Assembly: GCA_035534915.1 (NCBI GenBank)
Contig: DATLQZ010000074.1
Location: forward strand, 6,167 to 70,166
DNA from: Candidatus Dormiibacterota bacterium
GTDB taxonomy: Bacteria > Chloroflexota > Dormibacteria > Aeolococcales > Bog-877
Direction of reading: 5' to 3'
Length of the DNA: 64,000 bases
Part shown: in pieces, positions 54,324-64,000 of the stretch
Layout of the letters: every line of letters begins with the position of its first letter
Numbering within the stretch: the stretch's first letter is position 1
Notes under the pieces: generated by a model
The model's database searches: none
Told to the model about the DNA's origin: nothing
The model's input: the letters and a program-made list of their open reading frames with translations, nothing else
Program-made: the position numbers and the translations under genes

Positions 54324-55088
54324 CTACGTGGTGGCGCTGTAGCCGCCGTCGATCACGACGACCGACCCTGTGACCATGTGGTTCGATGTGATCAACGAGA
54401 CCACGACCTCGGACACGTCCTCGGCCGTCACCACCCGGCCGAGCGGCGTGTGACTTGAGCGCCGGTCCATGAGGCGCTGGTAGTTGTCGCCCAGCGTCTG
54501 CTCCATCCACTCTCCCAGGACCCATCCTGGTGCCACCGCGTTGACTCGGACCTGGGGGGCGAGAGCCCGTGCCAGGGTCCTGGTGAGGTTGGCGACCGCT
54601 GCCTTGGTGGCCGCGTACGGGAGTGGCTGGGCGCTGGGTCGAAGTCCGGCGATGCTCGACATGTTGACAACGCTCGCGTCATCGGACAGCCGCAACAGTG
54701 GGACGGCGGCTCGAGTCACCTGAAACAGCCCGCGGACGTTCACCGCGAAGACCCGATCCCACGCCTCCAGATCCATCGATTCAAGGTCCTCGGGGGCGGT
54801 CTCGACGGTCATGCCCGCGTTGTTAACCAGCGCGTCCAGCCGGCCGAAGGTATGAGCGCAGGTCTGCAGCATCGCCCTGACCGCGGATTCGTCACTCACA
54901 TCTGCCTGCAGGGGCATCGCCTGAGCACCAAAGCTACGGACCAGCGCTGCGGTCTCCTCCGCCTGCTCCGCGCTGCGGCTGAAGTTGACCGCTACGTCAT
55001 AGCCGCGCTGGGCGAGGGCGACCGCCACACTCCTGCCCATCCCGCGAGAGGCTCCGGTTACCAAAGCCGCTCTGCGAATCTCGCTCAA
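54324..55088 (-). CDS. SDR-family oxidoreductase (FabG-like)
   Basis: 254 aa with the Rossmann motif VTGASRGMG, NNAG, and the catalytic S...YAATK. The TTG start overlaps the stop of the upstream OsmC-like gene (TTGA). Confidence 0.9.
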   Translation of the reverse strand: MSEIRRAALVTGASRGMGRSVAVALAQRGYDVAVNFSRSAEQAEETAALVRSFGAQAMPLQADVSDESAVRAMLQTCAHTFGRLDALVNNAGMTVETAPEDLESMDLEAWDRVFAVNVRGLFQVTRAAVPLLRLSDDASVVNMSSIAGLRPSAQPLPYAATKAAVANLTRTLARALAPQVRVNAVAPGWVLGEWMEQTLGDNYQRLMDRRSSHTPLGRVVTAEDVSEVVVSLITSNHMVTGSVVVIDGGYSATT

Positions 55089-55639
55089 CTCAAATCCTCC
55101 GGGGACGAGATATCCAACTCCGATCCATTGAGGTCGACGGCCATGGTCGTGGCCACCGGGTGGCGGAACGTCTGACTGGCGTGGCAGGCTCTTTCGGCAT
55201 GTTGGCAGAGGCGGGCCACGGCCTCCGGAGGCGCCGGGCTCTTCACGCGGAGCAGAAACTCAACGTGCTGAAAGGCGCCCGGGGGACCCCCGAGGTCGTA
55301 CTTGTCCGCGAGGCTAAAGGTGGCCCGCACATCGGCCTCGGCTTCCCAGATCGTCACATCGTAAAGAGGCGAAAACTTCGCCAATTGGGTGAGCATTCAA
55401 AAGGCCGCTCCGGCCAGCAGATACTGCAGCGGACGGGGCGCGGAGCCCCCGCCACCTCCCGCAACCGGCTCGTCCGATTCCAGCCGAAAGGTGCCGACCC
55501 GACCCTCCATATGTAGGTCGCGATCGATGCGAGCGACCGCCCGCTGGGTGATCAGTGGCTGCTCCGCTGTCTCGGCCCTGGTGGCCTCGTAAACCTGCCG
55601 CATCCGTTCCAGGTTGACCCTCGGCTCGGGGTCGCTCAT
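55085..55639 (-). CDS. OsmC/Ohr-family peroxidase-like protein interrupted by one in-frame TGA at the first catalytic Cys position (candidate selenoprotein, or pseudogene)
   Basis: Track ORFs 55397..55666 and 55085..55396 are in the same frame, separated only by TGA (55399-55397). The joined product reads ...SAPRPLQYLLAGAAF[TGA]MLTQLAKF...HAERACHASQTF, which fits the OsmC fold and both Cys motifs. ATG 55639 overlaps the upstream gene's stop (ATGA); GTG 55666 is an alternative start. Confidence 0.6.
55368..55382 (-). promoter_or_regulatory. SECIS-like hairpin 14 nt downstream of the in-frame UGA
   Basis: The minus-strand RNA reads UGA-AUGCUCACCCAAUU-GGCGAA-GUU-UUCGCC. This is a 6-bp stem with G-U at the start of the apical loop, about 20 nt after the UGA. 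It is short and was not tested for covariation. Confidence 0.3.
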
Positions 55640-57978
55640 ATCGACGGTCCTCCCATTAGGCGCCACAGCTTCTCGGGTGAGTACGGGGGGTTGGCGTGGC
55701 GCACGCCGAGTTCCCGGAGAGCATCAAACACGGCATTCGCGATCGCCGCAGGTACCACGATGCAGCCTGATTCCGCCACCCCTTTGGTCCCCAGCGGGCT
55801 GAGAGGCGAGCGGGTCGGTCGGAACTCCGTGATCATCTCGATGTCCACATCGGGCATGGTGGGGATGGCGTAGCTCATGAAGCCCTCGGTCAGCGGCTGA
55901 CCGTTGCCATCGTGGGACACCTCCTCGAAGATCGCGGCCGCGACTCCTTGAATGCTGGAACCGATCACCTGTCCTTCCGCCAAGAGCGGGTTGATGATTG
56001 GGCCGGCGTCGTCGACTGTCACCAGCCGTTCCACCCGCACAAAGCCGGTCTCCCGATCTATCTCGACAGTGGCAACGGAGGCGCTGGAGCCAAACGCCAG
56101 CCGGGGAAGGGTGAATCGGCCATCTCCCCGGAGTTCTGGCAAGTCGGCGTTCGGCCATTCTGCAGCTGCCCGAGCGATCTCGGCTAGGGTGAGGAGACGT
56201 TCGCCGGCCGGTCCGACAATCGCTCCCTGATCCCAACGGAGCTGCTCTTCGGGGATGTCCAGCATGTGGGCGGCCCAGATCTGACAACGGCGCTGCAGCT
56301 CCTCGATTGCCAGCAGGATCGCCCCCCCGCCGACAGTCACAGAGCGGCTGGCGAAGGTTCCCATGCCAAGAGGAACTTCAGCGGAGTCCCCACTGTGAAC
56401 TTCGATGTCGTCGGTATCGAGCCCCAGGGCATCGGCCGCGATTTGAGAGAAGGTTGTCGCGTGGCCCTGCCCGTGGTCGCTGGATCCAGGCAGCAGCAGG
56501 ACCCGCCCATCGGGTTGTAGCTTGGCGGCGGCCGTCTCCCAGTTGCCGTTGCCGCTCGACTCGACGGCGACGGCAACACCAATTCCCCGCAGCTTCCCCT
56601 GAGATCTGTCGAGCGCCAGGTCGGCGCGGGCCCGTGCGTAGTCCGCGAGCTCCAACGCCCTGTCTAAAAGTCCTGGGTAGTCTCCCGAGTCATACTCCGT
56701 GCCGGTGGCGGCAAGGTACGGGAGTGCTTCTGGCGGCACCAGATTCAACTTCCGTATCGCCACCGGGTCCATGCCCAGTTCGGCCGCGGCGAGGTCTGCT
56801 AGCCGCTCGATAACGAAGGTCGCCTCGGGCCGACCGGCGCCCCGATAGGGGCCGGTGGGGACCTTGTTCGTGGCCGCTCCAACGACTTCCACGTCGGCCG
56901 CTGAGATGTCGTAGGGTCCGGTCGCCAGACTGCTCGAGGTTGATCCCACCACCGCGGTATGGCCCAGTAGATAGGCGCCGGCATCAAAGATCATTCGTAC
57001 TCGGAGCGCTTTGAATCGTCCCGTGGCATCCACGGCAAGCTCGGCGTCCGCGTCCATGCCGCGGCCCTGGTAGGAGGCGACGAATGCTTCCGAGCGGGTC
57101 TCGACCCACTTGACAGGCCGTCCGGTCTGTATCGCCGTCAAGGCGGCGACCACATACTCGGGAGCCAAGCCGCCCTTGCTGCCGAAGGCGCCGCCGACGT
57201 CTGGTACGACAACCCGGATGCGGTCCGCCGGACGGCCGAGGACGTACGCCATCTGAAGGCGAGGTCGGTGCGGATCTTGGGATGAACACCAGAGCGTCAA
57301 GAGATCGTCGTCTGCTGAGTACTTCGCGACACAGCCCCGCGGTTCGATTGGAGATGCCTGCAGTCGGGGAATCGAGAAATCGGCTCGGATCACCCTGGCT
57401 GCCCGTTGCAGTTCCCCGCTCACGTCTCCTGAAGCATGTCGGTAGGAGAAGAGCACGTTGTCAGGGGCAGCCGGCTGGACGGGCGGGCCGCCGTCCAGGG
57501 CTGCCCTCGGTGCGCCCACCGAGGGCAGCGCATCCAGCTCGGGCCAGACGAGGTCGGCGGCATCGGCAGCCTGGCTCCTGGTCTCTGCCAGCACCGCCGC
57601 AACGGCCTCGCCGACGAACCGGACCTTCTCTGCGGCCAGAATCGGCATTGGAACGTCCGCCACCTTGAAGCCATCTGGGAGTTGGGTCGCGCGAAGGGGC
57701 AGGGGTAGCAGACTCTTCGGCAGGTCTGCCGCCGTTATGACCTGAACGACGCCGGGTGAGGCCTGGGCCGCTGCGAGGTTCAGGCCTCGAATGCTGGCGT
57801 GGGGAACCTGGCTCCTAACGAAGGCGAGATGTAGGCAATCCGCAAACTCAAGATCGTCCAAGTAGGCACCCTGCCCGAGCACCAAGCGGGCATCCTCCCG
57901 TCGGATCTGGGGCCGTCCGATCCATGGCTCAGTCAAAGAACTCCCACTCCAGTCTGCCCTGCCCTGGCTCCCCCTCAT
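55636..57978 (-). CDS. xanthine dehydrogenase / aldehyde oxidase / CoxL-family molybdopterin-binding subunit
   Basis: 780 aa with IGRPQIRREDARLVLGQGAYLDD (a/b hammerhead), GGAFGSKG and GPYRGAGRPEATFVIERL. No FeS (CoxS) or FAD (CoxM) subunit gene is adjacent. Confidence 0.9.
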   Translation of the reverse strand: MRGSQGRADWSGSSLTEPWIGRPQIRREDARLVLGQGAYLDDLEFADCLHLAFVRSQVPHASIRGLNLAAAQASPGVVQVITAADLPKSLLPLPLRATQLPDGFKVADVPMPILAAEKVRFVGEAVAAVLAETRSQAADAADLVWPELDALPSVGAPRAALDGGPPVQPAAPDNVLFSYRHASGDVSGELQRAARVIRADFSIPRLQASPIEPRGCVAKYSADDDLLTLWCSSQDPHRPRLQMAYVLGRPADRIRVVVPDVGGAFGSKGGLAPEYVVAALTAIQTGRPVKWVETRSEAFVASYQGRGMDADAELAVDATGRFKALRVRMIFDAGAYLLGHTAVVGSTSSSLATGPYDISAADVEVVGAATNKVPTGPYRGAGRPEATFVIERLADLAAAELGMDPVAIRKLNLVPPEALPYLAATGTEYDSGDYPGLLDRALELADYARARADLALDRSQGKLRGIGVAVAVESSGNGNWETAAAKLQPDGRVLLLPGSSDHGQGHATTFSQIAADALGLDTDDIEVHSGDSAEVPLGMGTFASRSVTVGGGAILLAIEELQRRCQIWAAHMLDIPEEQLRWDQGAIVGPAGERLLTLAEIARAAAEWPNADLPELRGDGRFTLPRLAFGSSASVATVEIDRETGFVRVERLVTVDDAGPIINPLLAEGQVIGSSIQGVAAAIFEEVSHDGNGQPLTEGFMSYAIPTMPDVDIEMITEFRPTRSPLSPLGTKGVAESGCIVVPAAIANAVFDALRELGVRHANPPYSPEKLWRLMGGPSI

Positions 57979-58881
57979 GGGCCTGCCCGGCTAGCGCCAT
58001 GCTACCGACGACGGTGAGTAGGATTTTAAGGCCTAGGACCCGGTCCGAGCAGGAACTGTCACGACCTGGTTTCAGCGGAAATCCTGGGGACCGCGCGGGG
58101 AATCTAGGGCAGAGTAGCCATCTCCGATGGGCAGGCGCTTGACGGAGAGGGGGGAACCCGCCATCGCAACGCATGGCGACCCAGCTCTACGGCGCACGCC
58201 TCCGGGCGACGGAGCCGGCTCAGGTAGTGCCCTTGAGGACCACGTTCCAATACCTGAAGGGCCGACCATGCCGCCTCGGCAACCATATGAGGGGGATCGT
58301 CGGGTGCGGCTCCGTGGTGTAGTCGAAGTCGCTACTAGCATTCGGGTGCGGACCGTGGTGAGATGGGCCGAGGCATACCCGTCGTGGGTCGGCCCCGGCT
58401 GACCGGAAGACGCGACCGCTCCGAGGTTGGCAACGACGACTGGCGGCGGATCCGATCTTCGAATTGGGCGAGCTGCCACAGGTGCCCAGTGAACAGACAT
58501 TGGGATACCGCTCGTGCTGAAATGTTCTTGTCGGTCGTGACGTAACCAAGAGGGGCTGGCGGCATCTGTGAGCGGCGACGAGTACACCCAATCGGGGGCG
58601 CTCTGAGGGGGACCAAGTGCATGTGGTCGCCGGCGATCTCCCCGCCGCGCTCATCGGCGTGGTTGAAGATGGCCGCGGTCTGCCTGGAGGGTCCCCTCAC
58701 TGGGGTCCAAACGGGCTGATCGTAGTGAGTATCCGATAGGTTGATGACACCACATTCGCTTCACCGGCCCGTCGCAGTCGGGCCGAGTCCGAGATTTCCC
58801 CGGCCGACCACCACCTGGTGCGCCACAGCCTCTCGCCTGCCCGGGATCCCCCCTGCTAGCCTCTGACGCCTGGGAGGTGGG

Positions 58882-60234
58882 TCAGCTCTGAATGGGTAGT
58901 CCAGCTTCTTTGGCGTTGTCGAAGTCGTCGTCGATGAGAACGACCGAGTGACCCGCTCGGTCGAGCAGGCTGGCTGCGACGCTGGCGCGATAGCCCACCC
59001 CGCAGTGAACCCAGAGCTCTTGCCGCGGAATCTCACGCATCCGTCCGGGAAGCTCCTGAATCGGGACGTTCCTTGACCCTGGAATGTGGCCGGATCGCCA
59101 TTCATCCGATTGGCGTACGTCCAGTACGACGGCCGCCTCGGGCAGCCCCTGTGCAACTCGGGCAAAGTCAGTCACCGGATAACCGCGCACCGGTAGCTGG
59201 GCGGAGTGCCCCGCGAATCCGACGGTGCTCGCCTCAAGTCGGTCCAGTCCGATCCGGGACAGGGCCCGGCGGGCGGCGCGGAAGTCGTCAAGACCGTCGG
59301 TCAGCAAGGTGAGCGAGGTGTCAAACGGCGACAACCAACCGGCGTAGGTCGAGAAGCTGCTGGATAGCTCCATCCCGACCGTACCCTGAAGGTGGGCGGC
59401 GGCGAATTGCCGTCGTGGCCTGGTGTCGATGACCCAACTGCCTCCTTCCAGCTTGACACGAAGCGCCTCGGAGTCCAGCTCGGAGATCTCCGTGATCTCG
59501 GCAAAGGCGGTGGGACCGAGCCGGTTGAGTGGAGCCATGTGGGAGTAATAGGAGGGGTACGGACCCAGTCCGGCGATGATCGATGCCACGAAGGCCGTCT
59601 CGTCATCCGTCGTCGCCGCCACGTTCTGTGCCCGCTCGCTGGCGATATTTCCAGCCCCGGCGCTGGAGGTGCCAGAGGATGCGCAGAAGCTTCCAAAGCC
59701 GTGCGTGGGTAACACCTGGGCGTCAGGTGGGACTTCCGCCATGAGCCGACGAGCCGAGCGATACTGATCTCGAGTGAGGCTCTCGGTGAGTTCCGACGAA
59801 ATTAGATCGGTGCGTCCCACGGTGCCGTAGAGGAGCGATCCCCCGGTCAGCACCGCGACCGCTGTGCCCGCTTCCAGAACCGCGTATGAGAGGTGGTTAG
59901 GGGTGTGCCCGGGAGTGTGCAGTGCTCGGACCGTCAAGCTGCCCGACTCAAAGGTATCGCCCTCATTGACGGCGCGACGGGCAAATTCGACCGAGTCGGC
60001 CGCTGCCACGCAATAATCGGCGCCCACCACCTTAGCCAGCGCCAGTCCGCCAGTCACGTAGTCATTGTGAATGTGGGTCTCGAACACATGGGTCACCCGT
60101 ATCCCGGAGCTCGTGATGCGACTCAGGAGCTTGTCAATGTCTCTTTGGGCGTCGACCACGAAGCCGAAGCTGCCGTCGTGAACGAGGTAGCTTCGGTCGC
60201 CGAGTTCAGGGGTTTCCACGACCACGACTTGCAC
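58882..60234 (-). CDS. MBL-fold metallohydrolase (persulfide-dioxygenase-like) fused to two rhodanese domains
   Basis: 450 aa. The N-terminal metallo-beta-lactamase fold has VFETHIHNDYVTG and HTPGHTPNH. The first rhodanese-like domain has no Cys. The C-terminal rhodanese domain has the active-site loop HCGVGYRAS. Confidence 0.88.
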   Translation of the reverse strand: MQVVVVETPELGDRSYLVHDGSFGFVVDAQRDIDKLLSRITSSGIRVTHVFETHIHNDYVTGGLALAKVVGADYCVAAADSVEFARRAVNEGDTFESGSLTVRALHTPGHTPNHLSYAVLEAGTAVAVLTGGSLLYGTVGRTDLISSELTESLTRDQYRSARRLMAEVPPDAQVLPTHGFGSFCASSGTSSAGAGNIASERAQNVAATTDDETAFVASIIAGLGPYPSYYSHMAPLNRLGPTAFAEITEISELDSEALRVKLEGGSWVIDTRPRRQFAAAHLQGTVGMELSSSFSTYAGWLSPFDTSLTLLTDGLDDFRAARRALSRIGLDRLEASTVGFAGHSAQLPVRGYPVTDFARVAQGLPEAAVVLDVRQSDEWRSGHIPGSRNVPIQELPGRMREIPRQELWVHCGVGYRASVAASLLDRAGHSVVLIDDDFDNAKEAGLPIQS

Positions 60235-60502
60235 CGCGCGTATCCTCCTCGGATGGCTCGGGCGGAAGGCGCTTGCCCGTCCAAATGTACGGACTTGCGC
60301 ACATACTAGTGCTCATCGTTGAAGATTTCAAGTCTCAGGGCAACCCTGGGTTGAGGGAGTCTACCGCCTGCCTCGGATGCGGTCCCTTCTGGGGATTCCG
60401 GGCGGGTCGGGTTGGCGTCGGCGATTGGCGGTCTCGCTCCCCGCGGAGCAAGGAGGCAAGAGGAGAGTTCCCGTGGCGAAGGCAGGCGAAACCACCGAGA
60501 CC

Positions 60503-61288
60503 ATGGGCCGTAGGCCACTGCGGCGCGACCATCCCTTGCCTCTTTGGGCTCAGTTGGCAGCCGAGCTACAGCGCCGGATAGATGGACAGGAGTTCGCCAC
60601 CGCCTTCCCCACCGAGCTTGAGTTGTCGTCCGGATACCAGGTCAGCCGGCACACCGTTCGTGAGGCCCTCCGCAAGCTGCGGACCGAGGGGGTTGTGGAC
60701 TCCAGAAGGGGACGAGGCAGCCGGGTGGTGGAGCCCCGCTTTCAGCAACCAGTCGGGGCGCTGTACAGCCTGTTCCGGTTTGTGGAATCTCAGGGGGCTG
60801 AGCAGACCAGCCAGGTGCGGAGGCTGGAACAGACCACCAATGCACTGGCCGCAAGGAAGCTGGGACTACCTCCGGAGGGCCAGTTGATCTATCTCGAGAG
60901 ACTTCGGCTGGCTGACGGGGATCCGCTCGCCCTGGATCGGGCCTGGGTGTCGGCTGGGCTCGGAGGGCCGCTGCTGAAGGCTGATTTTTCGCACTCGGCA
61001 CTCTACGATCAGATGGCGGCGCTTTGTGGCACCAGGCCCGACAGCGGCCGGGAGGAGATTCGCGCTGTGGTGCCAACCGCCACTGAGCGAGCGCTTCTGA
61101 AGCTTCGGTCCGGGACGGGGGCATTTCAGATCGAGCGTCTGGGATATGCCGACCTCGAACCGATCGAGTGGCGCAGCACCCTGATCCGCGCAGACCGCTA
61201 CAGCTTTGCCATCGACTGGTTGGGGCGTCACAGTGTCCGCGTGGGAGCTCAGAGGTCCTCTTTAGGGCGCGCCCCGATCGACGGCTGA
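60503..61288 (+). CDS. GntR-family transcriptional regulator (HutC/UTRA subfamily)
   Basis: ATG 60503. 261 aa with PLWAQLAAELQRRIDGQEF, the wHTH LELSSGYQVSRHTVREALRKLRTEGVVDSRRGRGSRV, and a UTRA-like C-terminal half. Confidence 0.85.
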   Translation: MGRRPLRRDHPLPLWAQLAAELQRRIDGQEFATAFPTELELSSGYQVSRHTVREALRKLRTEGVVDSRRGRGSRVVEPRFQQPVGALYSLFRFVESQGAEQTSQVRRLEQTTNALAARKLGLPPEGQLIYLERLRLADGDPLALDRAWVSAGLGGPLLKADFSHSALYDQMAALCGTRPDSGREEIRAVVPTATERALLKLRSGTGAFQIERLGYADLEPIEWRSTLIRADRYSFAIDWLGRHSVRVGAQRSSLGRAPIDG

Positions 61289-61382
61289 TCGGTGTCGCCC
61301 CGGGCAGGCCGGTGGCACTAGCTGGACGCTGGCGGGGTCAAAGCCCCTAAAATCCGGACAACCGGTCAAAAGCGAAGGGGCT

Positions 61383-62927
61383 ATGAGATACGGGTTCGCG
61401 ATAGATCAGGGGACGTGCATAGGGTGCCACGCGTGCACGGTCGCCTGCAAGACCGAGCATAAGATCCCGGTCGGGCAGTTCCGGACGTGGGTGAAATATG
61501 TGGAGAAGGGTGCTTTCCCCTCCACGCGCCGGGAGTTCGCGGTGATGCGCTGCAATCACTGCACCGACGCCCCCTGCGTGAGGATCTGTCCCACCCAGGC
61601 GCTCTTCAAGCGTCCCGACGGGATCGTCGACTTCGACAGTGACCGCTGCATCGGCTGCAAGAGCTGCCTGCAGGCCTGCCCGTACGACGCCATCTACATA
61701 GACGCGGACACCCACACTGCGGCCAAGTGCAACTTCTGCGCTCACAGGGTCGATCAGGGGATGGAGCCAGCGTGCGTGGTGGTGTGCCCCACCCATTCGA
61801 TATGGGTTGGTGACCTGGATGACCCCAAGAGCGGGATCAGCCGCCTGATCGCGGAGAAGCCGACGGCGGTGCGGTCGCCGGAGCAGAACACACATCCCAA
61901 CGTCTTCTACCTGGGCGCTGACCGAGTAGCCCTGGACCCGCTGGAGGCTCCGGTGGCCGACACCTACATCTTCTCGAAGCCCGACGAACAGCGGCTGCAG
62001 TACGCGCAGGGACAGCCGGAGCGCCCGGCGGAGGCGGCACGGACGACGCTCAACACCTCGCACCCGAGACCGTGGGGGTGGAGGGTGTCCGGCTATCTGT
62101 GGACCAAGTCGGTGGCGACCGGGGCGTTGTTGGTGGCCGCTCTGTCTCTCATCGCCAATGGCCGCTTGGGGGCAGAGGTCCTGCTGGCGGCGCCCGCCAT
62201 CGCTCTACTCATGTCCATCGTGACCGGGGTGCTCCTGATCTGGGACCTGAAGCGCCCGGAGCGGTTCTTATACATCTTCCTAAAGGCGAACCCGACCTCT
62301 TGGTTGGTGTGGGGGACGGTTGCCTTCAGCCTGTACTCCGCCGTCAGCGGGCTTTGGCTCCTTTTGGGGTTGCTCGGAACCGCTGCGGTCATTGGGCATT
62401 CGGCCCTTCAGCTCAGCTTTGAGATCCTGCGCTGGGCGGTCTTGCCGGTGGCGGCGGTGACCGCAGGTTACTCGGCTTTGCTATTCAATCAGGCGGAGGG
62501 GCGGGACCTGTGGCAGTCCCCCATCTTCTTCTGGCACCTCCTCGACCAGGCGCTGCTGGCTGGATCCGGTGCGCTGCTGCTGGTGGGACTCCTCACCTCT
62601 CCGGTCGCCGCTGAGACCAGATTCCTGCTGGTGATCTTGGTGTGTGCCGCGGTCGGTCACCTGCTCCTGCTGACCCTGGAGCACGTCGGCCACCACCCGA
62701 GCCGTCAGGCCGCCATGGCGGCCAAGCTCATGATCCTAGGGCCCTACGCCAAGGAGTTCTGGTTGGGCGCAGTCGCTGTTCCGGTACTGGTCATCGCTCT
62801 CGCCAGTGGCTCCCTCCCGGGAGCCGTGCTGGCGGTCGGAGCGGTGGCTGGAGCGATCGTGCAACCGGGGCTGCTGGCGTATGAAACCGCCTTTGTGCGA
62901 GCTGGTCAGGATGTCCCGCTCTCCTAG
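61383..62927 (+). CDS. four-cluster 4Fe-4S ferredoxin subunit (PsrB/DmsB-like) fused to a polytopic NrfD/PsrC-like membrane domain
   Basis: 514 aa. The N-terminal ~200 aa carry four Cys groups (CIGCHACTVAC, CNHCTDAPCVRICP, CIGCKSCLQACP, CNFCAHRV...CVVVCP). The C-terminal ~300 aa contain about 8 hydrophobic helices. Confidence 0.85.
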   Translation: MRYGFAIDQGTCIGCHACTVACKTEHKIPVGQFRTWVKYVEKGAFPSTRREFAVMRCNHCTDAPCVRICPTQALFKRPDGIVDFDSDRCIGCKSCLQACPYDAIYIDADTHTAAKCNFCAHRVDQGMEPACVVVCPTHSIWVGDLDDPKSGISRLIAEKPTAVRSPEQNTHPNVFYLGADRVALDPLEAPVADTYIFSKPDEQRLQYAQGQPERPAEAARTTLNTSHPRPWGWRVSGYLWTKSVATGALLVAALSLIANGRLGAEVLLAAPAIALLMSIVTGVLLIWDLKRPERFLYIFLKANPTSWLVWGTVAFSLYSAVSGLWLLLGLLGTAAVIGHSALQLSFEILRWAVLPVAAVTAGYSALLFNQAEGRDLWQSPIFFWHLLDQALLAGSGALLLVGLLTSPVAAETRFLLVILVCAAVGHLLLLTLEHVGHHPSRQAAMAAKLMILGPYAKEFWLGAVAVPVLVIALASGSLPGAVLAVGAVAGAIVQPGLLAYETAFVRAGQDVPLS

Positions 62928-64000
62928 GGAGGAAGGCGCCAGCGCGCCCGGGCCAGACGCCCAGCGTTGGGGTTCGGTGGAACTGCCCGGGCAGCGCAGC
63001 CACGAGCACTTGAGCAACTACCCACCGGTCGAGAGCTGGGACGACCACATGGAGTTGGACGCACAGGCCCACCCCCGCCGCGTCGAGCACCACTACACCC
63101 TGGTCCCCACCACTTGCTTCAACTGTGAGAGCGGGTGTGGGTTGCTGGCGTACGTGGACCAGGAGGATCTCTCCATCCGCAAGCTGGAGGGCAACCCTGC
63201 CCACCCAGGCTCTAGGGGCCGAAATTGCGCCAAAGGGCCGGCCACCGTGAATCAATTGGATGACCCTGAACGGATCCTTCACCCGCAGCGCCGGGTGGGA
63301 CCAAGGGGCGGTGGCCAGTGGGAGGATGTCAGTTGGGACCAGGCGCTGGACGACATCGCCCAGCGCATCCGCACCGCGATCCAGGAAGATCGACGGCGAG
63401 AGGTCATGTACCACGTTGGCCGACCCGGCGAGGACGGGTTCGCTGAGCGGTTCCTGATGGCGTGGGGGGTGGACGGCCACAACAGCCACACCAACATCTG
63501 CTCGGCGGGGGCCAGATTTGGGATGACTTTGTGGGCAGGGTACGATCGGCCCTCTCCTGACTACGCCAACGCCAAGGTGATCCTCCTGCTGTCAAGTCAC
63601 CTGGAGACCGGCCACTACTTCAATCCCCACGCCCAGAGGATCATGGAGGCAAGGCAGAACGGCGCGCGCCTGGCGGTCGTCGACCCGAGGTTGTCCAACA
63701 CGGCGGCCAAGGCGGACCTGTGGGTCTCTCCGTGGCCCGGAAGCGAGGCGGCGATTCTGCTTGCGATCGCTTCCTATCTCCTGCGCACTGGCAGGGTGGA
63801 TCGGGAGTTCGTCAGGCGATGGGTGAACTGGCAGACCTACCTGCAGGAGCTGCATCCGGCGGCACCGGCGACCTTCGAGAGCTTCCTTGAGCAGTTGGAG
63901 TCGGACTACTCCCAGTACACCTTTGAGTTCGCAGCCGAAGAGGCGCAGATCCCTGTGGAGGAGGTCGAGAGGCTGGCGGAGCTGGTGGCCAACTCGGACC
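62911..64000 (+). CDS. molybdopterin (bis-MGD) oxidoreductase catalytic subunit, Psr/Phs/Soe-like, 3' end outside window
   Basis: Frame 1 is open from ATG 62911 to the window end; the ORF is not in the track because no stop is present. It has the FS0 motif TTCFNCESGCG...NCAKG, then MYHVGRPGEDG, HNSHTNICSAGARFG and ARLAVVDPRLSNTAAKADLWVSPWPGSE. No twin-arginine signal is seen in the first 60 aa. Confidence 0.87.
   Translation, partial: MSRSPREEGASAPGPDAQRWGSVELPGQRSHEHLSNYPPVESWDDHMELDAQAHPRRVEHHYTLVPTTCFNCESGCGLLAYVDQEDLSIRKLEGNPAHPGSRGRNCAKGPATVNQLDDPERILHPQRRVGPRGGGQWEDVSWDQALDDIAQRIRTAIQEDRRREVMYHVGRPGEDGFAERFLMAWGVDGHNSHTNICSAGARFGMTLWAGYDRPSPDYANAKVILLLSSHLETGHYFNPHAQRIMEARQNGARLAVVDPRLSNTAAKADLWVSPWPGSEAAILLAIASYLLRTGRVDREFVRRWVNWQTYLQELHPAAPATFESFLEQLESDYSQYTFEFAAEEAQIPVEEVERLAELVANSD

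Follow-up and report, generated by a model that had tools for sequence, protein, structure and literature searches.

The window analysed here, a 64,000-nucleotide stretch of DNA from a soil bacterium of the Dormibacteria, carries a conserved module that combines a membrane-bound, inward-facing molybdoenzyme (Mo enzyme) with an unusual relative of persulfide enzymes and a regulator. The layout is divergent. A minus-strand gene encodes an MBL-rhodanese protein (58882..60234, 450 aa), while the plus strand encodes a GntR/UTRA regulator of the HutC type (60503..61288, alternative start 60377), a fusion of an FeS domain (Fer4_11) with an NrfD-type anchor (61383..62927, 514 aa) and the N-terminal 363 of the 964 residues of a bis-MGD catalytic subunit (62911..64000), whose stop lies 1.8 kb past the window at window-equivalent position 65805. 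Pfam and open reading frame anatomy confirmed all four genes at the places given in the initial annotation, including the divergent regulator (60377/60503-61288) and the fused FeS and anchor gene ahead of the catalytic subunit. All are intact, syntenic in four congeneric genomes and under purifying selection (dN/dS 0.05-0.19 for each gene against two congeners). Dedicated chaperone and Mrp genes, present in most relatives, are absent from the window operon. Directly downstream of the MBL-rhodanese gene lies a type II SQR pseudogene (58229..58760, minus strand), and a stand-alone xanthine-dehydrogenase (XDH)-family large subunit (780 aa; Pfam Ald_Xan_dh_C, MoCoBD_1 and MoCoBD_2) is encoded at 55636..57978 on the same strand. 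The XDH-family gene is syntenic in congeners G005 and G002 and is a recurrent neighbour of the module in other lineages, following the Mo subunit in loci L032 and L143 and lying near it in L030. The module was probably acquired laterally from Actinomycetota.

The MBL-rhodanese protein aligned over its full length with CstB-type structures (3tp9, E 8.5e-64; 3r2u, E 7.8e-36) and shares with CstB of Staphylococcus aureus (3R2U) and Alicyclobacillus 3TP9 the succession of MBL domain, degenerate rhodanese and rhodanese. Pfam detected Lactamase_B and a single C-terminal Rhodanese with the loop HCGVGYRAS (C411); of the two rhodaneses first described, the middle one is degenerate, lacks a Cys and went undetected by Pfam. 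Residues were mapped onto H56/H119/D145/R154/C201/C408 of CstB (PMC12934615). The key positions in the window protein are H54, H56, D58, Y59, H110, G132, R141, H178, C184 (loop) and C411 (rhodanese). Equivalents of CstB H56, H58, H119, R154, loop C201 and rhodanese C408 are conserved, and both sulfur-carrying cysteines, C184 and C411, are retained, whereas G132 occupies the iron-ligand position held by D145 in CstB. The same Gly is found in 120 of the 120 closest homologs, which we refer to as the 'Gly' subfamily (dN/dS 0.15-0.19 for the window gene against the two congeners). Since the iron-binding Asp of the His2Asp triad is common to all characterised persulfide dioxygenases and is absent here, the persulfide dioxygenase identity originally suggested is unproven, and the upstream step may not be dioxygenation. 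The window protein also differs from the CstB type in its HxHxDY (rather than HxHxDF) motif and C-A/S (rather than C-G) loop, and is only 33% identical to a canonical CstB-like protein of Mycolicibacterium. As with CstB, relatives carry their MBL-rhodanese gene in genomic association with one for a type II SQR, but the window protein is linked to a molybdoenzyme and CstB to CstA/TauE. CstB-type enzymes release thiosulfate, not sulfite, and S-sulfonate is shuttled on CstB C201 (PMC12934615).

The SQR of locus L030, which matches human SQOR (E 3e-108), yielded tblastn fragments in the window covering residues 33-55, 232-288, 260-358 and 289-401 in three frames. The local SQR is thus a decayed pseudogene, but congener G004 has an intact copy at the equivalent position, whose product shares 66% identity with that of L030. 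Neither a TauE exporter nor a NIR_SIR sulfite reductase was found in the recovered genome, which is only 78% complete; a small sulfite-oxidase-fold protein is encoded elsewhere in it. The regulator scored 45 bits for GntR and 97 bits for UTRA in Pfam, with HutC and PhnF as best NCBIfam matches, all far under cut-off, and its homologs align from near residue 45 of the long reading frame that starts at 60377. Within the divergent promoter region (60235-60502), an intergenic alignment of five congeners revealed a conserved block, GTACGGAC (60287..60294), with the genus consensus GTCCGGAC, a GT-N4-AC palindrome. Related elements lie 5' of the MBL-rhodanese gene in the distant loci L032 (GTACGTAC) and L030 (GTCAGAAC). 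We infer that this block is a candidate GntR operator. The HutC-type regulator probably represses both divergent units via a GTCCGGAC-like operator, and a small effector at the UTRA domain would lift that repression.

The catalytic subunit starts at ATG 62911, with a 17-nt overlap with the preceding stop; the stretch before a later ATG is conserved in homologs, supporting this start. Its FS0 cluster is formed by Cys69/72/76/106, and the putative Mo ligand is Cys197 (63499-63501). Its counterpart in T. thermophilus PsrA is Cys173, the Mo ligand of the PsrABC structure. In place of a Tat signal the N-terminus carries a clade-specific 'LxNYPPVxxWD' extension. The absence of a twin-arginine signal, noted initially, was borne out on the full-length sequence: whichever candidate start is taken, the region ahead of the first Cys cluster contains neither a twin-arginine motif nor a hydrophobic h-region, and the same holds for 120 homologs. 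The best PDB match was 2vpw (E 2.8e-30). Among curated HMMs, PhsA scored highest on the A subunit, at 177 bits (cut-off 694), and TtrB on the B part, at 192 bits, while TtrA reached 103 bits on the A subunit (cut-off 1750); every match fell far below the curated-family cut-offs of 694, 416 and 1750 bits. Similarity scores to SoeA (128 bits) and PhsA (143 bits) place the subunit at equal distance from both, and homology therefore gives no substrate call. In the maximum-likelihood tree the window family groups, at 100/100 support, with sisters that bear a Tat signal (P0248, P0304 and P0267) and share the YPP..W extension. A 99/98-supported clade joins the window family to Tat-exported Psr-like enzymes, leaving SoeA and TtrA outside, and a joint clade with SoeA was rejected by the AU test (p=0.003), a comparison made with Aquificales SoeA. 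One sister-clade relative, on a Sulfurovum plasmid, has separate B and C genes in B-C-A order plus a TorD gene. The closest relatives of the window enzyme are Tat-exported B-C-A enzymes.

The fusion protein joins a four-cluster ferredoxin (residues 1-~200), N-terminal to TM1, to a quinone-interacting NrfD-type anchor of eight helices (residues ~225-514), all eight TM cores being present. The FeS part shares 46% identity with TtrB and 36% with SoeB, and the anchor is 27% identical to Sulfurovum NrfD; comparison of the anchor with SoeC gave no match. Its even loops hold 12 K+R residues against three in the odd loops, whereas the even/odd counts in Tat-type anchors are 6/15 (Sulfurovum), 3/10 (Azoarcus) and 6/12 (TtrC). 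Neither Mo-enzyme subunit has a Tat or Sec signal in the window or in 120 homologs. Because export signals are lacking, the FeS domain precedes TM1 and the anchor K/R bias is inverted relative to Tat-type anchors, the active site and FeS wire are placed on the cytoplasmic face, in agreement with the initial annotation.

Outside the genus, a Gly-type MBL-rhodanese adjoins the FeS-NrfD/Mo pair in five of seven sampled contigs, in four gene orders, often accompanied by GntR and type II SQR; one contig carries the single-strand array LysR-BC-A-NarJ-MBLRhd-SQR. Among 151 same-phylum genomes, MBL-rhodanese homologs occur in 11 of the 22 that are Mo-positive and in 32 of the other 129 (Fisher p=0.02, ignoring phylogeny). 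Because the linkage persists through gene-order shuffling in distant lineages, the proposal that these genes form a conserved functional module is supported. The sulfur-oxidation setting proposed for it also held up, as sulfur-oxidation and persulfide genes neighbour the Mo enzyme across phyla. In Mycolicibacterium moriokaense the Mo genes are flanked on one side by an sHdr-LbpA cluster with TusA/DsrE and on the other by Mrp, SQR-like, Trx, CstB-like, rhodanese, TauE and CstR-like genes. They directly follow DsrE-TusA on Rhodococcus jostii RHA1 plasmid pRHL3, come after a CsoR/CstR-like regulator in Thermomicrobium roseum and precede a SulP/STAS transporter in Prauserella; in T. roseum and Natrinema the pair has no carrier gene nearby. 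A survey of NarJ-family chaperones described 2-3-ORF 'nrfD-hybA-bisC' operons in Gram-positives and Archaea, in which genes for an NrfD protein and a ferredoxin accompany that for a BisC-annotated molybdoenzyme, often with a NarJ-family (TorD/DmsD-like) chaperone (PMC4464133). Loci L030, L141 and L142 resemble these by description; the survey gave its operons no function, orientation or sulfur link.

The substrate of the Mo enzyme is deduced solely from its gene neighbours. We judge it an even call that the enzyme is a sulfite:menaquinone oxidoreductase that resembles SoeABC by convergence and is coupled to the processing of persulfide. Most likely, it would oxidise toxic cytoplasmic sulfite to sulfate, the two electrons travelling along the FeS clusters to reach menaquinone at the NrfD domain. 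The MBL-rhodanese would most likely convert persulfide sulfur, originally supplied by the adjacent SQR, to sulfite or thiosulfate, the Mo enzyme completing the oxidation. Electron transfer from sulfite/sulfate (~-516 mV) to menaquinone (~-74 mV) is strongly downhill; quinol-driven persulfide reduction at the cytoplasmic side is not. The missing TauE and NIR_SIR count in favour, as a need for a sulfite enzyme. Counted against it are thiosulfate release by CstB-type enzymes (PMC12934615) and also the SQR pseudogene, the small sulfite-oxidase-fold protein and the lack of a dedicated chaperone/Mrp. The initially proposed route from persulfide via sulfite to sulfate remains the best hypothesis, although the MBL Asp is missing and the SQR partner decayed.

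Other readings have to be weighed against this one. DsrE-TusA, immediately 5' in the same operon in RHA1, suggests that the substrate could be carrier-bound sulfur, not free sulfite: a Cys-persulfide or Cys-S-sulfonate on MBL-rhodanese, TusA or DsrE would be oxidised in an O2-independent, quinone-linked manner, the Gly-type MBL having given up dioxygenase chemistry. The tight, specific linkage of the Mo pair to an Asp-less MBL-rhodanese that keeps both sulfur-carrying cysteines fits this idea, as does the S-sulfonate shuttle of CstB (PMC12934615). We nonetheless think it unlikely, since Mo-bisPGD enzymes usually act on small substrates by single two-electron oxo-transfers, the T. roseum and Natrinema pairs lack a nearby carrier gene, and sHdr, the neighbour in Mycolicibacterium, already makes sulfite from carrier-bound sulfur. 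Distinctly less probable still is a non-sulfur substrate (arsenite/arsenate, selenite, nitrate or an organic N-/S-oxide) with sulfur neighbours that are coincidental or serve cofactor/Fe-S maturation. The family is uncharacterised, XDH-family, Mrp/NBP35 and NarJ-like genes likewise recur near the Mo pair, and HutC-like GntR regulators are typical of organic-compound catabolism. Yet Actinomycetota, Thermomicrobia and Dormibacteria each independently show recurrent sulfur-handling neighbours, across differing gene orders and regulators (CstR-like, ArsR, LysR and GntR), and recurrent arsenic, selenium or nitrogen genes were not found among the neighbours.

Relatedness might instead suggest a cytoplasm-facing, menaquinol-driven reductase of polysulfide/persulfide, thiosulfate or tetrathionate that clears excess sulfane sulfur, like Psr, Phs or Ttr. 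PhsA and TtrB are the top HMMs, Tat-exported Psr-like enzymes form the sister clade and the B-C-A order is that of ttrBCA (PMC12949373). PsrABC and PhsABC (T. thermophilus 2VPW; Salmonella/E. coli PhsABC) share the aligned Cys Mo ligand and the NrfD-type 8-helix anchor, but Psr and Phs are Tat-exported and periplasm-facing; the window enzyme has an inverted anchor topology, ~200 additional A-subunit residues and a catalytic direction that is likely opposite. TtrBCA matches in gene order, FeS part and NrfD-type anchor, but TtrA and TtrB bear Tat signals and TtrA falls outside the window clade. The HMM matches lie far under their cut-offs, quinol-driven persulfide reduction would be uphill with proton-motive-force help removed by the inward orientation, and the neighbours (sHdr, SQR, PDO-like, TauE and CstR) belong to oxidative or detoxifying, sulfite-generating pathways; we consider such a reductase improbable. 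The SoeABC-type assignment of the initial annotation, taken as true orthology with fused SoeB-SoeC, is barely credible. SoeABC of Allochromatium vinosum and Aquifex aeolicus does share Mo-bisPGD, FS0, a four-cluster FeS subunit, a haem-free quinone-interacting anchor, a Tat-less, cytoplasm-facing arrangement, a similar A-subunit length (964 versus about 949 aa) and a genomic tie to cytoplasmic sulfur oxidation. Orthology to Aquificales SoeA is, however, contradicted by identity (23.5% over 562 aa to Aquifex SoeA), by the tree and AU test that set the A subunit in a separate lineage, by the anchor family (SoeC is DmsC-type, 302 bits; the window anchor NrfD-type) and by gene order (unfused A-B-C versus (BC)-A with the B-C fusion), and the YPP..W extension is found only on the window enzyme's side.

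On the favoured reading, as a convergent sulfite:menaquinone oxidoreductase, the ancestor would have been a Tat-exported B-C-A enzyme related to polysulfide/thiosulfate reductases, which turned inward through Tat-signal loss, B-C fusion and inversion of the anchor charge bias. The window lineage would thus have reached the job of SoeABC independently, and its Mo enzyme represents an unstudied lineage, distinct from known SoeABC.

The four genes that the initial annotation described between position 58882 and the end of the window are present as drawn. From 58882 on the minus strand lies a gene for a 450 aa protein combining an MBL fold with rhodanese domains, transcribed divergently from a regulator gene with GntR and UTRA domains (Pfam). 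These are followed by a four-cluster ferredoxin fused to an NrfD-type membrane anchor (BC, 514 aa) and a molybdopterin (bis-MGD) catalytic subunit (A), which starts at ATG 62911 and reaches 964 aa once the contig is read past the window end. This ATG overlaps the stop codon of the preceding gene by 17 nt, and we take it as the correct start because homologues conserve sequence upstream of the next ATG. Downstream of A the contig continues with tyrS and then housekeeping genes. The host genome is a MAG of 1.87 Mb, 78% complete, and the nearest relatives of its proteins carry Candidatus Dormibacteria labels. Four congeneric genomes retain the synteny of all four genes, and dN/dS values of 0.05–0.19 indicate purifying selection on each gene; these values rule out decay of the module in the window genome, with the exception of a sulfide:quinone oxidoreductase (SQR) gene discussed below.

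The catalytic subunit had been placed on the cytoplasmic face of the membrane for want of a twin-arginine signal, and this assignment stood once the full-length protein was examined. No twin-arginine motif or hydrophobic stretch was found at any candidate A N-terminus, upstream starts included, and neither the A nor the B subunit carries an RR motif or h-region; a Tat signal at an alternative upstream start was discounted, as no such start exists. In place of a Tat signal, the A N-terminus of 120 homologues is a hydrophilic, conserved extension, ‘LPGxRxHExLxN(Y/F)PPVxxWD’. In the FeS domain, the first Cys cluster begins from residue 1, ahead of the first transmembrane helix. We aligned ten fused subunits with three separate anchors of Tat systems (Sulfurovum, Azoarcus and the E. 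coli plasmid TtrC), and an alignment-based scan gave eight helix cores, where a crude single-sequence hydropathy scan gave only seven. The window anchor has 12 K/R residues in even loops, on the side of the FeS domain, and three in odd loops, whereas the even/odd counts for the Sulfurovum, Azoarcus and TtrC anchors are 6/15, 3/10 and 6/12, respectively. Under the positive-inside rule, this inverted bias indicates that the whole complex is flipped, with the FeS and catalytic subunits on the cytoplasmic side.

The proposed kinship with SoeABC, on the other hand, was not upheld. Our SoeA reference was drawn solely from Aquifex and Hydrogenobacter genomes (Aquifex-group MAGs and isolates, not strain VF5, located via the PDB sequence of Aquifex YebC). 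These genomes hold only one Tat-less A-B-C molybdoenzyme, their other large Mo enzyme being NapA; it is the SoeABC whose biochemistry has been characterised in A. aeolicus (cited in PMC8076601). Matches from Caballeronia, Thioclava and Agrobacterium, considered as further SoeA candidates, were rejected as unrelated soluble Mo enzymes. In the reference loci, soeA, soeB and soeC are contiguous in an Aquifex sp. (L134), and one or two small genes of approximately 184 aa separate soeA from soeB in Hydrogenobacter/Aquificaceae (L135:3943-5036 and L136:5066-5617).

By BLASTP, the window A subunit shares 23.5% identity with Aquifex SoeA over 562 aa (128 bits), which is no closer than PhsA (143 bits). 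In a maximum-likelihood tree of 37 sequences (LG+G4), with atypical composition and long branches in several rows, the window family forms a 100/100 clade with some divergent Tat-less relatives and three Tat-bearing relatives that share a YPP..W extension. The sister of this clade (99/98 support) comprises Tat-exported Psr-like enzymes, including a B-C-A-TorD system on an Azoarcus plasmid, while SoeA, PhsA and TtrA all fall outside; an AU test rejected a single clade of the window family and SoeA (p = 0.003). The best-matching solved structures for A were T. thermophilus PsrA (E 2.8e-30) and ArrA, and matches in the representative library were mostly fragments, with cluster names devoid of functional labels.

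SoeABC and the window enzyme both lack a Tat signal and have the catalytic dimer on the cytoplasmic side, but Aquifex SoeC is a DmsC protein (PF04976, 302 bits), whereas the window anchor is NrfD (PF03916, 71.5 bits) with no BLAST match to SoeC; the SoeABC genes run A-B-C with a separate SoeC, whereas B and C form one polypeptide in the window, encoded before A. Shared with Psr/Phs enzymes are the FS0 motif CxxCxxxC...C at residues 69–106, the NrfD-type anchor (Pfam) and Cys197, which aligns with the Mo-ligand Cys173 of PsrA. However, the NCBIfam PhsA score of the window A subunit is 177.5 bits against a cut-off of 694, and the A and B subunits of Psr/Phs are Tat-exported and periplasm-facing, unlike those of the window. 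The order ttrBCA, seen in the plasmid comparison, resembles that of the window, where the B–C fusion precedes A, but scores for TtrA (102.9 bits, cut-off 1750) and TtrB (192.5, cut-off 416) are low and the window enzyme has no Tat signals. A sister-clade relative on a Sulfurovum plasmid has B and C as separate genes, in the order B-C-A, with a TorD chaperone. The tree, AU test, identity, anchor type and Sulfurovum gene order together show that the window enzyme is not a member of SoeABC; it is a B-C-A enzyme of periplasmic type in which export was lost, the B and C subunits were fused and the topology was inverted. On the Sulfurovum mangrovi plasmid NZ_CP087125.1 (L036, 7001–10169), the sister-clade A is frameshifted into unannotated ORFs of 337 and 737 aa, probably reflecting either gene decay or an error in sequencing.

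Homology between the MBL-rhodanese protein and the CstB-type structures 3tp9 and 3r2u extends across the full length. According to a 2026 structural analysis of S. aureus CstB, Fe(II) is bound by H56, H119 and D145, the loop cysteine C201 (C201-G202) is self-S-sulfonated, thiosulfate is released by the rhodanese cysteine C408 and R154 stabilises the loop (PMC12934615). The window protein has the same MBL(PDO)-pseudo-rhodanese-rhodanese architecture, with C184 as the loop cysteine (C201 in CstB) and C411 as the rhodanese cysteine (C408), both invariant in 19/19 aligned sequences and in motif counts of 120 homologues; H54, H56, H110 and R141 are also retained. The protein differs in having Y59 in HxHxDY and in the His2Asp triad (H79, H135 and D154 in ETHE1): H54 and H110 are kept, but the Asp position is G132. 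Hence the initial reading of this protein as a persulfide dioxygenase (PDO)–sulfurtransferase fusion is borne out in its architecture and both cysteines and fails at the iron-binding Asp. The Gly, HxHxDY and HGFGSFC motifs occur in 120/120 of the closest database homologues (at least 50% identity), whereas a canonical CstB-like protein of Mycolicibacterium, 33% identical to the window protein, has the Asp. These Gly-type proteins constitute a distinct, conserved subfamily lacking the Asp of the metal site that defines PDOs. As three histidines remain, a 3-His site is conceivable, and we can only speculate that the MBL domain switched to one from His2Asp.

Linkage of this subfamily to the molybdoenzyme extends beyond the congeners, as the co-occurrence expected in related genomes would have it. 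BC-A is adjacent in 5/7 non-congeneric contigs with a Gly-type gene, in four gene orders: MBLRhd<->GntR-LysR-WhiB-BC-A-NarJ, GntR-MBLRhd-BC-A-XDH (seen twice), LysR-BC-A-NarJ-MBLRhd-SQR and GntR...MBLRhd<->NarJ-A-BC-LysR. Three or four of these five linked contigs also carry a GntR/UTRA gene, and in two the gene immediately after MBL-rhodanese is a type II SQR, within what is a small sampling of gene contexts. Phylum-wide, co-occurrence of MBL-rhodanese with the Mo enzyme was 11/22 versus 32/129 (p = 0.02, phylogeny ignored). An XDH-family large subunit also recurs beside the module, at 55636–57978 (minus strand) in the window, where no FeS or FAD subunit genes adjoin it, and in three non-congeneric contigs (L032:14077-16359, L143:7029-9311 and L030:14421-16826).

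Between the XDH-family and MBL-rhodanese genes of the window is a 900-bp gap that had seemed empty. An RNA element was considered here and rejected, as the gap has no Rfam match and is occupied by a decayed type II SQR gene (58229–58760, minus strand), whose fragments lie frameshifted in three frames, marking it as a pseudogene, with the N-terminal half missing. At the same locus, congener G004 has an intact SQR after the MBL-rhodanese gene, and in congeners G005 and G002 the SQR is fully deleted. Intact copies in G004 and relatives, together with the window remnant, indicate an ancestral unit in which an sqr/PDO-like pair was joined to the Mo enzyme, with SQR since lost at this locus in the window genome. 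The pairing with type II SQR in relatives also argues for persulfide as the substrate of the MBL-rhodanese protein.

Genes akin to sqr and cst, looked for elsewhere in the genome, were found on two contigs. On C67 (112704–114012), a TusA-like gene abuts a second SQR-like flavoprotein gene, and on C23 (42548–43732), a CstR-like regulator of the CsoR family (Cys…Cys, without the copper-ligand His; 69% identity to its Mycolicibacterium counterpart) faces two single-domain rhodaneses. There is one small sulfite-oxidase-fold protein. No NIR_SIR sulfite reductase, sHdr, DsrE or NarJ-like gene was found in the recovered genome (78% complete), nor a TauE-family exporter, which is present in 13/14 control genomes; as the genome is incomplete, these absences are provisional. 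Within the window, an OsmC/Ohr-like gene (55085–55666, minus strand) has a single in-frame TGA at 55397–55399 (…LLAGAAF-TGA-MLTQLAKF…), approximately at the peroxidatic Cys of the family, with a second Cys motif, ERACHAS, downstream. Congener G005 (83% identity) conserves this TGA together with the sequence on either side, and a tRNA-Sec was detected in the genome by aragorn, making this a candidate selenocysteine-containing OsmC-like peroxidase.

The regulator is a HutC-type GntR protein, with an N-terminal winged-helix GntR domain (Pfam, 45.2 bits) and a C-terminal UTRA effector domain (97 bits); no curated NCBIfam equivalog was reached, the best being HutC (102.6 bits against 220). Across five congeners, the divergent intergenic region holds one conserved block, centred on GTCCGGAC, of which the window version is GTACGGAC (60287–60294). 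Elements of a similar GT-N4-AC form precede the MBL-rhodanese gene in two distant loci, and the block is a plausible GntR operator.

The gene company of BC-A in other taxa bears on its substrate. In Mycolicibacterium moriokaense, BC-A is flanked on one side by an sHdr-LbpA cluster for sulfur oxidation, together with TusA and DsrE, and on the other by genes for Mrp/NBP35, HesB, an SQR-like flavoprotein, thioredoxin, a canonical CstB-like protein, a rhodanese, TauE and a CsoR-like regulator. Rhodococcus jostii pRHL3 has DsrE-TusA-BC-A-Mrp facing MBL and ArsR genes; a CsoR/CstR-like regulator lies upstream in Thermomicrobium roseum, a SulP/STAS transporter downstream in Prauserella and Mrp alone after BC-A in Natrinema. 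Independently of one another, these contexts tie the molybdoenzyme to cytoplasmic sulfane-sulfur oxidation, of which sulfite is the product. The Mrp/NBP35 ATPase gene overlaps the end of the A gene in Actinomycetota and haloarchaea (L025, L027, L034 and L038), a NarJ/TorD-family chaperone takes its place in other relatives, and the Dormibacteria locus has neither, with tyrS directly after A. We found no functional description of the BC-A family in the literature searched, the nearest mention being in a survey from 2015, which covers ‘nrfD-hybA-bisC’ operons accompanied by TorD-like chaperones in Gram-positives and Archaea (PMC4464133).

Genomic context thus suggests a sulfite:quinone oxidoreductase. 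The MBL-rhodanese protein would convert persulfide, supplied in the past by the adjacent SQR and at present by the second SQR-like enzyme, by cysteine catabolism or by rhodaneses, into sulfite or thiosulfate. The inward-facing molybdoenzyme would oxidise sulfite to sulfate at its Cys-ligated Mo centre, passing electrons via FS0 and the four FeS clusters to menaquinone in the NrfD domain, with the GntR protein gating both transcription units. The analysis establishes the orientation, lineage, linkage and selection; the substrate, the direction of electron flow, the MBL chemistry and the regulation are inferred. In the main rival reading, carrier-bound sulfur is the substrate of the Mo enzyme, and this would also account for the loss of the dioxygenase iron ligand in a dedicated MBL-rhodanese partner. 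In a bolder form, which we regard as improbable, the Gly-type protein, its iron site lost, could serve solely to carry or position a Cys-persulfide or S-sulfonate that the molybdoenzyme oxidises with water-derived oxygen, electrons passing to the quinone pool: a previously unrecognised, O2-independent cytoplasmic oxidation of sulfane sulfur. If true, sulfide detoxification would conserve energy without consuming O2. Sulfite oxidation remains our preferred reading, and the Gly subfamily offers a direct test of the true requirements for persulfide dioxygenase chemistry.

The A subunit is 72–77% identical to proteins of Pseudonocardia, Amycolatopsis, Prauserella, Mycolicibacterium, Gordonia and Rhodococcus, compared to 57–62% within its own phylum. 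In the tree, Dormibacteria copies nest in Actinomycetota (99/98 and 95/89), outside which branch those of Thermomicrobium and a haloarchaeon, and MBL-rhodanese identity is 51–57% to Actinomycetota and at most 42% in the phylum outside the genus. Two kinds of Mo enzyme are found in the same family/order, one ‘actinobacterial-like’ (80–92% to the window, 72–77% to Actinomycetota) and one ‘native-like’ (59–61%; G033 and G008). Their coexistence points to lateral acquisition of the whole module, most likely from an actinobacterium.

Homologues of A are currently labelled ‘formate dehydrogenase’ or ‘anaerobic selenocysteine-containing dehydrogenase’, so standard annotation misses the family. The complex offers a clean natural case of whole-complex topology inversion, with Tat loss, B–C fusion and a flipped charge bias. 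Persulfide oxidation, sHdr and organosulfonate breakdown all generate sulfite within the cell, and to our knowledge the disposal of this sulfite is poorly understood in Actinomycetota, Chloroflexota/Dormibacteria and haloarchaea, many of which lack SoeABC and Sor-type enzymes. That gap would be filled if a widespread enzyme, highly conserved at 72–77% identity between phyla, had, through inversion of a reductase-type periplasmic enzyme, reached the SoeABC solution independently.
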